Assembly (NCBI RefSeq): GCF_058153355.1
Contig: NZ_CM177019.1
Reading direction: 5' to 3' (one strand)
DNA: 64,000 bases
In this document: piece after piece, positions 20,000 to 24,908 of the stretch
Position numbering within the stretch: the stretch's first letter is position 1
Layout of the letters: every line of letters begins with the position of its first letter
The notes under the pieces: generated by a model
The model's input: the letters and a program-made list of their open reading frames with translations, nothing else
What the model was told of the DNA's origin: nothing
Databases searched by the model: none
Position numbers and translations under genes: made by a program

Positions 20000-21349
20000 A
20001 TGTCTGAAATTGTTGTCTCCAAATTTGGCGGTACCAGCGTAGCTGATTTTGACGCCATGAACCGCAGCGCTGATATTGTGCTTTCTGATGCCAACGTACG
20101 TTTAGTTGTCCTCTCGGCTTCTGCTGGTATCACTAATCTGCTGGTCGCTTTAGCTGAAGGACTGGAACCTGGCGAGCGATTCGAAAAACTCGACGCAATC
20201 CGCAATATCCAGTTTGCCATTCTGGAACGTCTGCGTTACCCGAACGTTATCCGTGAAGAGATTGAACGTCTGCTGGAGAACATTACTGTTCTGGCAGAAG
20301 CGGCGGCGCTGGCAACGTCTCCGGCGCTGACAGATGAACTGGTCAGCCACGGCGAGCTGATGTCGACCCTGCTGTTTGTTGAGATCCTGCGCGAACGCGA
20401 TATTCAGGCACAGTGGTTTGATGTACGTAAAGTGATGCGTACTAATGACCGATTTGGTCGTGCAGAGCCAGACGTAGCCGCGCTGGCGGAACTGGCTGCG
20501 CTGCAGCTGCTCCCGCGCCTCAATGAAGGCTTAGTGATCACCCAAGGATTTATCGGCAGCGAAAGTAAAGGTCGTACAACGACGCTTGGCCGTGGAGGCA
20601 GCGATTATACGGCAGCCTTGCTGGCGGAGGCCTTACACGCTTCTCGTGTTGATATCTGGACCGATGTCCCAGGCATCTACACCACCGATCCACGCGTGGT
20701 CACCGCAGCAAAACGTATTGATGAAATCGCGTTTGCCGAAGCGGCAGAGATGGCAACTTTTGGTGCAAAAGTACTGCATCCGGCAACATTGCTACCCGCA
20801 GTACGCAGCGATATTCCGGTGTTTGTCGGCTCCAGTAAAGACCCACGCGCAGGTGGTACGCTGGTGTGCAATAAAACTGAAAATCCGCCGCTGTTCCGCG
20901 CCCTGGCGCTTCGTCGTAATCAGACTCTGCTCACTTTGCACAGCCTGAATATGCTGCATTCTCGCGGTTTCCTCGCGGAAGTTTTTGGCATTCTCGCGCG
21001 GCATAATATCTCGGTGGATTTAATCACCACATCAGAAGTGAGCGTGGCATTAACCCTTGATACCACCGGTTCAACCTCCACTGGCGATACATTGCTGACG
21101 CAATCTCTGCTGATGGAGCTTTCCGCACTGTGCCGGGTAGAAGTGGAAGAAGGCCTGGCGCTGGTCGCGTTGATTGGCAATGACCTGTCAAAAGCCTGCG
21201 GCGTAGGCAAAGAGGTATTTGGCGTACTGGAACCGTTTAACATCCGCATGATTTGCTACGGCGCATCCAGCCATAACCTGTGCTTCCTGGTGCCCGGCGA
21301 AGATGCCGAGCAGGTGGTGCAGAAGCTGCATTTTAATTTGTTTGAGTAA
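20000..21349 (+). CDS. lysC: lysine-sensitive aspartokinase III
   Basis: 449-aa ORF beginning MSEIVVSKFGGTSVADFDAMNRSADIVLSDANVRLVVLSASAGITNLL, matching LysC. Confidence 0.97.
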   Translation: MSEIVVSKFGGTSVADFDAMNRSADIVLSDANVRLVVLSASAGITNLLVALAEGLEPGERFEKLDAIRNIQFAILERLRYPNVIREEIERLLENITVLAEAAALATSPALTDELVSHGELMSTLLFVEILRERDIQAQWFDVRKVMRTNDRFGRAEPDVAALAELAALQLLPRLNEGLVITQGFIGSESKGRTTTLGRGGSDYTAALLAEALHASRVDIWTDVPGIYTTDPRVVTAAKRIDEIAFAEAAEMATFGAKVLHPATLLPAVRSDIPVFVGSSKDPRAGGTLVCNKTENPPLFRALALRRNQTLLTLHSLNMLHSRGFLAEVFGILARHNISVDLITTSEVSVALTLDTTGSTSTGDTLLTQSLLMELSALCRVEVEEGLALVALIGNDLSKACGVGKEVFGVLEPFNIRMICYGASSHNLCFLVPGEDAEQVVQKLHFNLFE

Positions 21350-21493
21350 TATTTCCCTACTGGCGTATAACGCTCACCAATTGTTATACGCCATCCTCAC
21401 TAAAAATATAGATTAAATAATATCTGAAAAGCAAAATCACTCCTGTAGAACAGTATTATAATCACCGAAAAATATCATTTAACAGGAGTGTTA

Positions 21494-22423
21494 ATGGCTA
21501 CATTAATGGAAAAAGATGCGCTTTTAAACGGAGCCAGTCAGTGCATCGCGTTTTTATCAAATATCGTTGATAATTGCTCCGTTTCGTCACGTCAGGATTC
21601 AGTCGATGATCTCACACGATTAGTTGGCTATCGCGATTATCTTTATTCCACTCCAGCTGAATTTGTTGATTTTACACAGGGAAAGAGTCACCTTCAGCAG
21701 GTAAGAACTCAATATCAGCGTGAATTCAATAATACTGCACATTCAGAAAATAAAGTATCTTTTGATTCTATTTGGCAGCGTCTGACAAATCATGAAGTCA
21801 CACCGCAACAGCATCCCATTGGTTTTGTTTTAGGTGGGCAACCCGGAGCGGGTAAATCATCGCTGATTGAATTAGCAAAAAGGGAAACAAAGAATAATAT
21901 AATGATTATTAACGGTGATGATTTCAGATTTCTACACCCTGATTTTAATTATATCTACCAAACTCATGGGGATGATTTTGTTACCCATACGGCGAAATTT
22001 TCCGGCGAAACGGTCGAACGAGCAATTGAGAGGGCGATAGTCAGTAAACTCAACATTGTTGTCGAAGGAACATTTCGTAATGCCACTACGCCGCTACAAA
22101 CATTAAAAAAACTCAAAGATGCAGGCTACCAAACAAACGTCATGATAAAAACCACCTCAGCGACGGTAAGCTGGGAAAGCACCAATGAACGGTATAATAA
22201 GGACAAAGAGGCGGGAAATATCGCCCGAAAAGTGGATAAAAACCACCACGATCTCGTCACCGATTTGCTGGCAGAAAATGCCAGCAAGGTGTTTGCTTCG
22301 AACCTGGCAGATAAGTTTGCGGTGTATTCGCGTGAGAAGATGATATTTAGTTCACAAGCGGCAACGAATGACGATATTGCGACGCTTATACAGAAGGTAA
22401 TCAGCGGGAATTCACAAGAATAA
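21494..22423 (+). CDS. zeta-toxin-family P-loop kinase with an N-terminal extension of about 100 aa (EzeT-like single-chain toxin-antitoxin architecture)
   Basis: Walker A GGQPGAGKSS, followed by INGDDFRFLHPDF and VVEGTFR, which align with zeta-toxin motifs (GGQPGSGKTS / DxF / VIEGTGR); ATG at 21494 preceded by AGGAG; AT-rich relative to neighbours. Confidence 0.72.
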   Translation: MATLMEKDALLNGASQCIAFLSNIVDNCSVSSRQDSVDDLTRLVGYRDYLYSTPAEFVDFTQGKSHLQQVRTQYQREFNNTAHSENKVSFDSIWQRLTNHEVTPQQHPIGFVLGGQPGAGKSSLIELAKRETKNNIMIINGDDFRFLHPDFNYIYQTHGDDFVTHTAKFSGETVERAIERAIVSKLNIVVEGTFRNATTPLQTLKKLKDAGYQTNVMIKTTSATVSWESTNERYNKDKEAGNIARKVDKNHHDLVTDLLAENASKVFASNLADKFAVYSREKMIFSSQAATNDDIATLIQKVISGNSQE

Positions 22424-22455: not shown

Positions 22456-23247
22456 TCACGTCCGGCGTATCACTGTTTGATACAACAACCCATCCAGCTC
22501 CCTGGCATCTCCATCCCTGCTATCCGGTAACACTGGTGGAATTTCCCCACGCGCCAGTTCCGCACGAATAAACGCATGTAACAAAGGACGGCGCGGACCA
22601 TATTCCGCTTCTCCCGCGCGCTGTTTACGTTCCAGCAGTTCGTCTATTTCTGCGCGTAACGGCGCATCAAGCTCGCTTCCCGCCAGTAACTCGGCAAAGC
22701 GCATTGGCGGCACGCCTTTTCCCGCTTCAACCCAGCGTACGGCCAGCAGCGGACGCAGCACGTAAAAGTATTTTTTCAGTCGAACTTCATCGCCCTGCAA
22801 ATAGTCGCGGAAGTTTTTCTGCGCCATCGAATAGTAATGCCAGCGTGCACGCAACGAAGAAAACCACATTGGGACCATTGCCTTAAGCGCCGTTATCGTT
22901 TCTTCATCTTGTTGATAGACCACCGGAGAATCCAGCCATTCTATCAGCGTCGGATTCGCGCCTTTCAATAATCCCAGCGCCTTACGCCACTCCCAACCGG
23001 AAACATCTAATTCGTCGTCGATGGGCAGCTCGATAACATCGCGCGGCGCCTCCACCCGCAGATACCATTCCAGCGGGTGAACATACAAAAATCGTACATC
23101 GTAGTCGCTGTCGGGAGAGGCAAATCCCCAGCCGCGGCTGCCTGATTCGCAGGCGTACAGCACTTTCACGCCATAGAGACGTTCTATTTCTTTTAACTGC
23201 TGCGATACCCGTTCGCGCATCGCAGCACTGACTCCATTTAATGGCAT
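22456..23247 (-). CDS. pol-beta-superfamily nucleotidyltransferase (GS-x9-DxD motif; resembles the COG3541 / RlaP-type predicted nucleotidyltransferase family)
   Basis: CESGSRGWGFASPDSDYDVRF contains the G-S...D-x-D nucleotidyltransferase signature; about 263 aa from the ATG at 23247 (ORF-track GTG at 23256 overlaps the upstream gene); translationally coupled to the SPFH gene. Confidence 0.68.
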   Translation of the reverse strand: MPLNGVSAAMRERVSQQLKEIERLYGVKVLYACESGSRGWGFASPDSDYDVRFLYVHPLEWYLRVEAPRDVIELPIDDELDVSGWEWRKALGLLKGANPTLIEWLDSPVVYQQDEETITALKAMVPMWFSSLRARWHYYSMAQKNFRDYLQGDEVRLKKYFYVLRPLLAVRWVEAGKGVPPMRFAELLAGSELDAPLRAEIDELLERKQRAGEAEYGPRRPLLHAFIRAELARGEIPPVLPDSRDGDARELDGLLYQTVIRRT

Positions 23248-23252
23248 GTTAC

Positions 23253-24380
23253 TCACCCTTTGATATTAACCAACCCATGCAGAACCTGATCCAGACCGCC
23301 AAATACAGAGATGTTATCGATCCGCTCAGCCACTCTCTCCAGCGTTTCCAGTTCTTTTAAGCGTAACGCCACCGGGTTGTTTTCCATGACTTTAGCGGTA
23401 TTGAGTAACGAACGTGTCGCTGCCGTTTCTTCACGCCGACGAATCACATTCGCCTGCGCAGATTTCTCTGCCTCAACCAGCTGCGCGAGGATATTTTTCA
23501 TATCACCAGGCAGGACGATATCTTTCACCCCTAATGAGGCAATCTCCATACCAAATGGCAACATGCGCGATTTCACCTGTTCGCTGACAACGTCATCAAT
23601 GACCTGTTTATCTTCCAGCAACTCATCCAGCGTACGCGTACCTACCGCTTCACGCAGTGCAAATTGCAATTCCCGATACAAATGATCAATCGGCTTCGTT
23701 AACTGACTAAATGCCAATAACACGTCGCTGTAGCGCCAGTTGGCGGCGAGGTTAATCCGCAGATTGACTTTATCTTTCGTTAAGATTTCTTGCCCGCTGA
23801 CTTCCAGTACCTGCAAGCGGGTGTCAACCACTTCAGCTTCAACCAGATGGTTAATTTTCCAGTACGCAGTCAGTCCCGGCAGTAACAGCGCCTGCGTTTC
23901 ACCATCGATTTTCAGTACACCTACGTGCCAGGCCGGAACCTGCACCGTCAGTATCGCATCGCGGCCTTTAACTGCCCCTTTGCGCCGTGGCTGCAATACC
24001 GCATTCATCACCTCCGTTTGAACCTGGACTTGCTGCGTATTCATCCGCACAAGCGTCAAATCATCCTCTACACGCCAGTACAAACGACGCGTTGATGGCG
24101 GCAGGATCTCCAGCAAAATACCGTCCATATACAACGCCCCGGCTTCAGTCTCCGACAAGTCGGCCACCACGCAATATCTTTCCACCCAATCAGGCTGAAA
24201 GCGGCGCAAATAATCCGCCAGCACGTCGGGAACTTCGCTGCCATCGAGCGTAATCAGCAAGACTTCTGGCGTATTTAACCAGGGTAAAAGATGCTCGCCT
24301 GCAGGCAGCACTTTGTAGTAATCGCCATTTCTGGAGAGTAATGCCAGCTGATCTTTTCTTACGCTTATTTTCTTAATCAT
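23253..24380 (-). CDS. SPFH/band-7 (stomatin-like) domain protein with an N-terminal domain of about 190 aa and no obvious membrane anchor
   Basis: The C-terminal half (ILTKDKVNLRINLAANWRY...GVKDIVLPGDMKNILAQLVEAEKSAQANVIRRREETAATRSL...PVALRLKELETLERVA) aligns with the stomatin/HflC SPFH core and the coiled-coil AEAE region; SD AAGGA before the ATG at 24380. Confidence 0.75.
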   Translation of the reverse strand: MIKKISVRKDQLALLSRNGDYYKVLPAGEHLLPWLNTPEVLLITLDGSEVPDVLADYLRRFQPDWVERYCVVADLSETEAGALYMDGILLEILPPSTRRLYWRVEDDLTLVRMNTQQVQVQTEVMNAVLQPRRKGAVKGRDAILTVQVPAWHVGVLKIDGETQALLLPGLTAYWKINHLVEAEVVDTRLQVLEVSGQEILTKDKVNLRINLAANWRYSDVLLAFSQLTKPIDHLYRELQFALREAVGTRTLDELLEDKQVIDDVVSEQVKSRMLPFGMEIASLGVKDIVLPGDMKNILAQLVEAEKSAQANVIRRREETAATRSLLNTAKVMENNPVALRLKELETLERVAERIDNISVFGGLDQVLHGLVNIKG

Positions 24381-24908
24381 TATCTATTCCTTGCTTAACA
24401 GCCGTCGCGGAAGCAGATACGAAGCGACAGGGGAATTCCCTTTTGCCTGTTACCCGGCGTCTTTATCGGCGACGTTATCGGGGATCGCTGACTGCGCAAT
24501 CCCTCATTTTTTATTTAATAAGTTACAACCAGTATTCATTTCAGGAATGAATGCGGGAATCGAGCCCGTAATTGGCGTCAAAGGCTGACGGAACACGCCC
24601 GGAAAACAGCCTGGCCGTTCCTGGTGTGCCGACGGGGTTTAACCCCCTTTGAAATTCAGTATCAACGCAAAAGTGTTATTGCGAGAAGCGTGCCAGAATT
24701 GAGAAATATTTTTAACCAAATGAAAAATAAAGAGTTAATAAATTACTGTTGTTTGTAGGGGGAAAACTTTTTGCTAAATTTTTATCTGTATTTATCGTCA
24801 ATTATCAAGAAAGATAGATATTTAAGAAGGGAACAAAGGAATATTATCAGTTCTGCTTGCAAATGAATTCCCGTACACTGAATCCATCAGCTAACTGAGG
24901 GCACCATC

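Follow-up and report, generated by a model that had tools for sequence, protein, structure and literature searches.

How is a zeta-type toxin kinase kept harmless when no antitoxin gene stands in front of it? This question is raised by a gene between lysC and a convergent nucleotidyltransferase gene in a stretch of 64,000 nucleotides (contig NZ_CM177019.1 of RefSeq assembly GCF_058153355.1; called the window in the following), for which a first-pass annotation made from the letters alone had proposed an EzeT-like kinase carrying its antitoxin in the same chain. The reading favored here goes further: very probably the gene is the orthologue of ezeT itself and encodes a zeta kinase that is inhibited in cis and would become toxic once its N-terminal domain is removed or displaced.

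The gene is a single unbroken reading frame from ATG to TAA, present in the ORF list and in the sequence and coding for 309 amino acids (Table 1). The N-terminal region lies in frame within this uninterrupted ORF, which argues against a separate upstream gene hidden by a frameshift, the case that the first-pass annotation had named as fatal to its proposal. The mechanical ORF list starts at GTG 21488; ATG 21494 is favored because E. coli orthologues are annotated with this start in RefSeq and because the N-terminus MATLMEKD is invariant. Between the lysC stop (21349) and the gene lies a spacer of 144 nt without a plausible antitoxin ORF, two short ORFs being the only candidates, one of 37 aa that overlaps the end of lysC and one of 21 aa on the minus strand, in agreement with the earlier statement that a separate antitoxin gene is missing upstream. 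The TATAAT hexamer in this spacer is kept in E. coli, in Escherichia sp. and in a two-gene relative (L016) that is discussed below. A two-hexamer promoter scan did not pick up the ezeT promoter, consistent with the E. coli ezeT promoter being weak, with a -10 element and without a -35 element, as described in a review (PMC4803016), a description that the -10 element of the window gene matches.

Table 1. Features of the ezeT locus and its neighbors, in coordinates of the window
Feature	Position	Strand	Basis or remark
ezeT orthologue, complete CDS	21494..22423	+	309 aa plus stop; Pfam, EzeT identity, synteny
Predicted N-terminal cis-antitoxin domain, aa 1-83	21494..21742	+	three predicted helices: 4-27, 33-52, 60-79
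Inter-domain linker, ~aa 80-89, NTAHSENKVS	21731..21760	+	lowest pLDDT block; site of 11-nt difference from split relatives
Zeta-type kinase (toxin) domain, aa 90-309	21761..22420	+	Pfam aa 101-282; Foldseek
Walker A P-loop GGQPGAGKSS, aa 114-123	21833..21862	+	K121 corresponds to zeta K46; invariant in 21 homologues
DDFR, aa 142-145	21917..21928	+	D142 corresponds to catalytic Asp67 of zeta; invariant in 21 homologues
VVEGTFR, aa 189-195	22058..22078	+	E191, T193, R195 correspond to zeta E116, T118, R120; invariant in 21 homologues
Shine-Dalgarno sequence AGGAG	21484-21488	+	sequence; 5 nt before ATG; conserved
Candidate ezeT promoter, TATAAT -10 hexamer	21457-21462	+	32 nt upstream of ATG; -35 not recognizable
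lysC (aspartokinase III), upstream neighbor outside the system	20000..21349	+	ORF; annotation of syntenic E. coli records
RlaP-family nucleotidyltransferase, convergent	22456..23247	-	Pfam RlaP E=2.5e-96
Slipin / Band-7 (SPFH), first gene of the presumed RNA-repair operon	23253..24380	-	Pfam Band_7 E=4.8e-26; synteny

Does the larger part of the protein belong to the zeta toxins? The Pfam model Zeta_toxin (PF06414) matches residues 101-282 with E=4.3e-40 and 137.7 bits at a cut-off of 22.3, a strong match, far outside chance expectation, in the very HMM search that had been set beforehand as a refuting test, and all three hallmarks named at that time (GGQPGAGKSS, DDFR and VVEGTFR) are present. 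HMMER searches of PDB sequences found PezT (2p5t) with an E value of 5e-31 and zeta (1gvn) with one of 1.6e-26, and in NCBIfam the protein reaches 125.6 bits with the PezT model, below the cut-off of 470. An ungapped HMMER alignment to zeta (1gvn_B) places K121 on K46, D142 on D67, E175 on E100, E191 on E116 and T193 on T118, and the same alignment further pairs R195 with R120, T203 with T128, R233 with R158 and R245 with R171. The zeta residues other than Asp67, for example E116, T118 and R120, are reported to have catalytic or substrate-site roles, reportedly in the studies Meinhart 2003 and Mutschler 2011. The nine aligned residues are invariant or nearly so among 21 homologues, and judged by this alignment the window kinase appears to possess every catalytic and substrate-site residue of zeta and PezT, including the equivalent of Asp67, the catalytically important aspartate of zeta (PMC5923241). 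Moreover, an AlphaFold2 model of the full-length protein, built on a 21-sequence alignment (pLDDT 90.8, pTM 0.89), has zeta and PezT as its top Foldseek matches with rmsd values of 1.7-2.9 Å. The best match of the kinase is zeta 1gvn_B (1.7 Å over 217 columns, E=5e-15), and PezT 2p5t follows with E of about 3e-14 and TM-scores of about 0.63 when normalized to the length of the query and 0.79 when normalized to that of the target. The PDB copy searched with Foldseek contained no EzeT structure.

What precedes the kinase? An N-terminal extension is present, as claimed earlier, albeit not with the proposed length of about 100 residues: the AlphaFold2 layout, in which three helices are followed by a linker and then by the kinase, points to a domain of about 83 residues plus a linker of about 10. 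The linker block, residues 81-90, has a mean pLDDT of 63, the lowest of the model, and the stretch directly before the P-loop aligns with PezT from residue 22 on and is part of the kinase fold in PezT and zeta. The boundary at about 83 residues agrees with the published constructs EzeT(1-82) and EzeT-ΔN83, as they are given in a review (PMC4803016). The N-terminus of this domain, MATLMEKDALLNG, is invariant in all seven of the close homologues that were aligned. AlphaFold2 predicts three helices for the domain both alone (pLDDT 85) and in the full-length context. Searched alone, its sequence gave nothing in Pfam at E values up to 10 and only a chance match to TRIM14 in the PDB, and no sequence similarity to Epsilon_antitox, PezA or any other Pfam or PDB entry was detected. 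Because these searches remained empty, we do not claim homology to epsilon or PezA. Foldseek with the isolated domain model likewise yielded no match at E<1; PezA (2p5t_E) was among the best TM-scores (0.64), but with E=6.4 this similarity is not significant.

How does this protein compare with canonical zeta systems? PezAT of Streptococcus pneumoniae (2p5t) shares the kinase fold and the active-site residues, and the toxin-binding part of PezA is a three-helix bundle; three helices are also predicted for the N-terminal domain of the window protein. PezA, however, is a separate protein encoded upstream and contains a helix-turn-helix repressor domain, whereas the EzeT antitoxin is fused to its toxin, lacks a DNA-binding domain and shows no similarity to PezA that sequence searches could detect. 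Epsilon/zeta of pSM19035 (1gvn, 3q8x) provides the best structural match of the kinase, with equivalents of K46, D67, E116, R158 and R171, but is a Gram-positive plasmid addiction module of three genes, omega-epsilon-zeta, with a separate epsilon of 90 residues, in contrast to the fused, chromosomal, Gram-negative window system. The pair ng_epsilon1/ng_zeta1 of Neisseria gonorrhoeae (6epg) also belongs to the Gram-negative part of the zeta superfamily and acts on UDP-sugars; its structure is distant (TM about 0.37), its antitoxin is an extended chain rather than a bundle, and the 4'-OH is phosphorylated (PMC5923241). A canonical two-gene identity, epsilon/zeta or PezAT, was considered for the window gene and rejected, as a separate upstream gene of the Epsilon_antitox or PezA type is missing and the N-terminal domain has no Pfam or PDB sequence match.

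Is the N-terminal domain then an antitoxin at all? The closest relatives that lack it (P0039-P0042) are toxins of 232-267 residues with a kinase identity of 67-69%, the N-termini of which coincide with the end of the EzeT linker. Upstream of each of them lies an ORF of 82 aa, the end of which overlaps the start of the toxin gene by 11 nt and the product of which is 51-56% identical to the EzeT N-terminal domain; this is the classic bicistronic toxin-antitoxin layout. Since stand-alone homologues thus precede the toxins in bicistronic layout, the N-terminal domain appears to be a genuine antitoxin module. In these split relatives (loci L014 and L016-L018) MATLMEKDALLNG is identical to that of EzeT, the motif YR-YLYST (YRDYLYST or YRNYLYST) is likewise invariant between the EzeT domain and the free-standing 82-aa proteins, and the layout of -10 element and ribosome binding site is similar. 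They differ from the single chromosomal ezeT gene in consisting of two overlapping genes and in their setting on plasmid-like contigs of Enterobacterales: three of the contigs are plasmid leading regions (PsiA, ParB, DUF905, ArdA or Rep3) and one is apparently chromosomal. A tblastn search of the PLSDB plasmids retrieved no close split or fused relative, identities above 60% being confined to two chromosomes filed as plasmids, and megablast of contig L016 against plasmids gave weak leading-region matches and nothing more.

How could the one-gene and the two-gene form be connected? Compared with the split junction, the DNA is longer by 11 nt in EzeT and by 14 nt in Pseudocitrobacter, and these additional nucleotides join the antitoxin and toxin frames. 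The EzeT authors themselves had the idea that a fusion links EzeT to a conventional operon (PMC4826407), and the comparison of the junctions supports such a link at the level of sequence. A simple neighbor-joining tree places the split plasmid forms within the fused chromosomal ones (Escherichia, Pseudocitrobacter and the distant P0134). If this tree holds, either fusion occurred repeatedly, or the fused state came first and was later undone by fission. It could be imagined that the lineage switches between fused and split form through the 11-14-nt junction indel, a proposal that we put forward only tentatively and consider rather less probable than its opposite. In addition, some E. coli genomes contain an orphan antitoxin homologue of 87 residues that could neutralize EzeT in trans.

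Which member of the family is the window gene? According to a 2023 review (PMC10532202), the EzeT that was validated experimentally has the accession WP_000212693.1, and in E. coli B1 strains lysC homologues are encoded beside EzeT. This very accession is annotated directly downstream of lysC in two E. coli strains, O104:H4 C227-11 and one of serotype O111:H8. The pairwise alignment that the first-pass annotation had suggested yields 91% identity to WP_000212693.1 over 308 residues without a gap, with 87% in the N-terminal domain (residues 1-78) and 94% in the kinase. The two proteins have in common the locus downstream of lysC, the two-domain layout, the -10 element and the ribosome binding site; they differ by 27 substitutions in 308 residues, by one additional C-terminal residue in the window protein (309 versus 308) and by the E. 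fergusonii-type host. The E. coli gene order is always pgi, lysC, a gene annotated as "zeta toxin family protein", the convergent nucleotidyltransferase and slipin genes, and then yjbD and rluF. Among 5426 complete E. coli genomes, 1433 contain DNA that is 90-95% identical to the window gene (97% in one strain), in each case as one copy and on the chromosome. Full-length homologues with a named source come from Escherichia and Pseudocitrobacter only. The exact window protein sits in a 90%-identity cluster consisting mostly of Escherichia fergusonii proteins, and for this reason the chromosome is probably of the E. fergusonii type. In the comparison with E. coli, ezeT has a synonymous divergence of 0.18, and lysC, rlaP, slipin and yjbD have values of 0.19-0.22; since dS of ezeT equals that of the flanking genes, the gene appears to be vertically inherited rather than independently acquired and to predate the divergence of E. 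coli and E. fergusonii. With a Zeta_toxin kinase, a fused homologous N-terminal domain, an upstream region free of an antitoxin gene and an orthologous locus, the window gene has at sequence level what defines EzeT, so that "EzeT-like" understated the case: it is the positional orthologue of EzeT itself, a system that is already known.

Could the gene nevertheless be a decaying, dead toxin-antitoxin remnant that is merely tolerated in the chromosome? Its dN/dS of 0.22 (0.20 in the N-terminal domain and 0.23 in the kinase) exceeds the 0.03-0.12 of its neighbors, some E. coli alleles are clearly broken (P0033 lacks residues 141-158 including the catalytic aspartate, and a frameshift affects P0035 after about residue 205), and the published toxicity requires an artificial truncation and temperatures below 30°C (PMC4803016). 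However, the ORF in the window is uninterrupted, none of the nine catalytic and substrate-site residues is lost, and both domains are under purifying selection by their dN/dS values. The gene has moreover kept its locus from a time before the separation of E. coli and E. fergusonii, with promoter and ribosome binding site conserved. A dead remnant is thus improbable, and a maintained EzeT orthologue is the preferred reading.

How would such a protein work? [quoted passage not shown] Kinase activity, ΔN83 toxicity below 30°C and trans rescue by residues 1-82 are thus taken over from the literature on E. coli EzeT. The primary study is reportedly that of Rocker and Meinhart, 2015. By contrast, the window gene and its relatives show directly what the protein is and that it is an orthologue, that its motifs are intact, which fold it has, that it is under purifying selection and that its N-terminal domain is homologous to stand-alone antitoxins; from the 91% identity we infer that the E. 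fergusonii-type protein acts like its E. coli counterpart. In the proposed mechanism the C-terminal ~220 residues form a P-loop kinase of the zeta/PezT type that, as in E. coli EzeT, would convert UDP-N-acetylglucosamine to UNAG-3P, whereby peptidoglycan synthesis would be blocked and the cells would lyse. The ~83 N-terminal residues with their three predicted helices would hold this kinase off in cis, and therefore the full-length protein would be harmless and toxicity would require loss of the domain, by removal or displacement. The likeliest route of inhibition, by analogy to epsilon and PezA, would be that the invariant MATLMEKDALLNG at the start of helix 1 is placed over the ATP site. In streptococcal epsilon antitoxins, which are three-helix bundles, helix 1 reaches into the ATP site with its N-terminal part (PMC5923241), and since the start of helix 1 is the most conserved stretch of the EzeT antitoxin, the inhibitory element probably lies there. 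The flexible linker around residues 80-89 would offer an obvious place for cleavage, so that occlusion of the ATP site by helix 1 would be relieved and the toxin activated.

Might the kinase act on something other than the 3'-OH of UDP-GlcNAc? The substrate range varies across the zeta superfamily (PMC5923241), and the distant Foldseek matches of the model include ng_zeta1, which acts on the 4'-OH of UDP-MurNAc, and AvrRxo1, which acts on NAD. The nearest structures, however, are zeta and PezT and not ng_zeta1 (TM 0.37) or AvrRxo1 (TM 0.47), the kinase domain is 94% identical to that of E. coli EzeT, and for the latter accumulation of UNAG-3P is reported in two reviews (PMC10532202; PMC4803016). 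A deviating substrate is therefore very hard to credit, and phosphorylation of UDP-N-acetylglucosamine remains the preferred assignment.

Does the toxin cooperate with the genes that face it? The first-pass annotation had correctly noted that ezeT is convergent with the SPFH-nucleotidyltransferase operon (stops at 22423 and 22456) and had considered that the three genes could interact functionally. As one module they might form, for instance, a defense or stress island. The genes are indeed adjacent and jointly present or absent in most E. coli: about 1424 genomes have all three, and K-12, O157:H7 and most other E. coli have none of them. In a third state, however, seen in about 200 E. coli genomes, slipin and RlaP are present and P2-like prophage tail genes occupy the place of ezeT. 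Beyond Escherichia, the locus next to lysC comprises a divergent rtcR, Band_7, RtcB and RlaP in Klebsiella aerogenes and Cronobacter and rtcR, Band_7 and RlaP in Citrobacter, and each of these loci has RlaP converging directly with lysC and no zeta toxin. Conversely, the full-length Pseudocitrobacter homologue (60% identity) lies elsewhere, between HEAT-repeat and HD-domain genes, with neither slipin nor RlaP nearby. The nucleotidyltransferase has more than 7900 homologues, with orthologues 77-88% identical across Enterobacteriaceae, as opposed to the narrow distribution of EzeT in Escherichia and Pseudocitrobacter; ezeT has a GC content of 41.6% versus 50-54% for the slipin/nucleotidyltransferase pair and the other neighbors; and, being convergent with the pair, ezeT is not co-transcribed with it. 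PADLOC assigned none of the three proteins to a defense system, EzeT giving only a sub-threshold match to PDC-M04B (E=0.005) and the other two nothing, and NCBIfam returned weak HflK/C matches. A functional three-gene module is consequently most improbable, and the suggested interaction finds no support.

What are the two neighbors instead? Because Klebsiella, Citrobacter and Cronobacter keep the operon beside lysC without a zeta toxin, the slipin/RlaP pair appears to be the Escherichia remnant of an ancestral RtcR/sigma-54 Band-7-(RtcB)-RlaP RNA-repair operon. The low-GC ezeT, in turn, is a later insertion that separates lysC from the convergent rlaP. The region upstream of the slipin gene contains a sigma-54-like promoter and a conserved, structured leader of about 300 nt with a hairpin resembling a tRNA T-arm, in which Rfam found no family and ARAGORN no tRNA. 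Burroughs and Aravind predicted a "band-7-associated tRNA", a prediction cited in a preprint (bioRxiv 10.1101/312249), and this leader is probably its counterpart.

What follows for the gene and its family? The correct label would be ezeT, a single-chain zeta toxin-antitoxin, instead of the generic "zeta toxin family protein". EzeT is a useful model of cis-autoinhibited toxins, and the invariant N-terminal peptide, the confident full-length model and the flexible linker would be of use for studying how EzeT is switched on. Furthermore, the split relatives and the 11-nt junction indel may help the study of EzeT evolution.

EzeT has split relatives in which its two domains are encoded by separate genes, and these were found at five loci of other genomes (L014-L018). 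The N-terminal domain of EzeT is 51-56% identical to the product of an 82-aa ORF in these pairs, and its kinase domain is 67-69% identical to the zeta toxin of 232-267 aa encoded by the second gene, the two genes overlapping by 11 nt. At this junction EzeT differs from the split pairs by 11 nt, and the Pseudocitrobacter homologue by 14. Most of the split pairs are set in plasmid leading-region contigs (PsiA, ParB, ArdA, Rep3); a search of PLSDB for a split EzeT-type pair found none. The next-closest relatives of the kinase, at 45-50% identity, lack the N-terminal antitoxin domain. Their C-terminus is instead lengthened by some 60-70 aa or more of conserved sequence. Among these relatives are Neisseria proteins of about 297 aa (P0044, P0048, P0054, P0099 and others) and a Rosenbergiella protein of 465 aa (P0043).

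Features of the window and of the compared loci
Feature	Location	Strand	Remark
Slipin-RlaP pair	window 22456-24380	-	compared with L019, L020, L021
Sigma-54-like promoter TGGCACGCTTCTCGCA	window 24695-24680	-	~300 nt upstream of slipin start
Leader between promoter and slipin	within window 24381-24695	-	
Split EzeT relative (antitoxin ORF + zeta toxin)	L016:5763-6801		
Same	L017:5763-6801		
Same	L018:5763-6804		
Same	L014:5763-6699		
Same	L015:823-1759		
Orphan EzeT antitoxin-domain homologue, 87 aa	L022:6001-6264		E. coli contig
Same	L023:4755-5018		E. coli contig
HEAT-repeat protein gene, 224 aa	L007:7288-7962		Pseudocitrobacter
P2-like prophage tail genes beside RlaP	L004:1-6000 and L005:1-6001		E. 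coli TCM3e1 and E2

Some E. coli genomes encode an orphan protein with 47-49% identity to the antitoxin domain of EzeT, flanked in L022 and L023 by a queE-like gene and an FGGY kinase gene, with no toxin gene downstream at either locus. The L014 split pair lies in a similar queD/queE neighbourhood, and the orphan may be the leftover of an L014-like split system. In Pseudocitrobacter the HEAT-repeat gene is located on the same strand as the full-length EzeT homologue, 38 nt upstream of it.

Several E. coli ezeT alleles are decayed or truncated. P0033 has lost 18 residues in frame (aa 141-158), including the catalytic Asp, P0035 is frameshifted past about aa 205, and P0034 (260 aa, from a cluster of 464 members) is missing 48 residues from the beginning of its antitoxin domain, possibly because the sequence is incomplete or its start was mis-called. 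P0038 also belongs to these alleles. The 90%-identity cluster containing E. coli EzeT includes many LysC proteins (449 aa) and has a representative of LysC length, which is probably a clustering artefact of read-through or fused gene calls over the adjacent lysC and ezeT. The tail genes of a P2-like prophage adjoin the RlaP gene precisely at the position of ezeT in some 200 complete E. coli genomes; the lysC-rlaP gap is occupied alternatively by prophage or ezeT.

The slipin-RlaP pair of the window is a cut-down version of the rtcR/Band_7/RtcB/RlaP RNA-repair operon, which adjoins lysC in Klebsiella and Cronobacter. The Citrobacter version is without rtcB, and the Escherichia version has lost both rtcR and rtcB and retains a sigma-54-type promoter. 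Aligned across four genera, the leader downstream of this promoter shows a mean column identity of 73%, and it contains a hairpin resembling a tRNA T-arm (GGGCTCGATTCCC). Compensatory changes occur at 20 of its 77 predicted pairs, with no more than five sequences in the alignment. Rfam and ARAGORN gave no match to the leader. A 'band-7-associated tRNA', as yet unvalidated, has been predicted for RtcB/Band-7 operons (a prediction cited in bioRxiv 10.1101/312249), and the slipin leader probably represents this predicted RNA.
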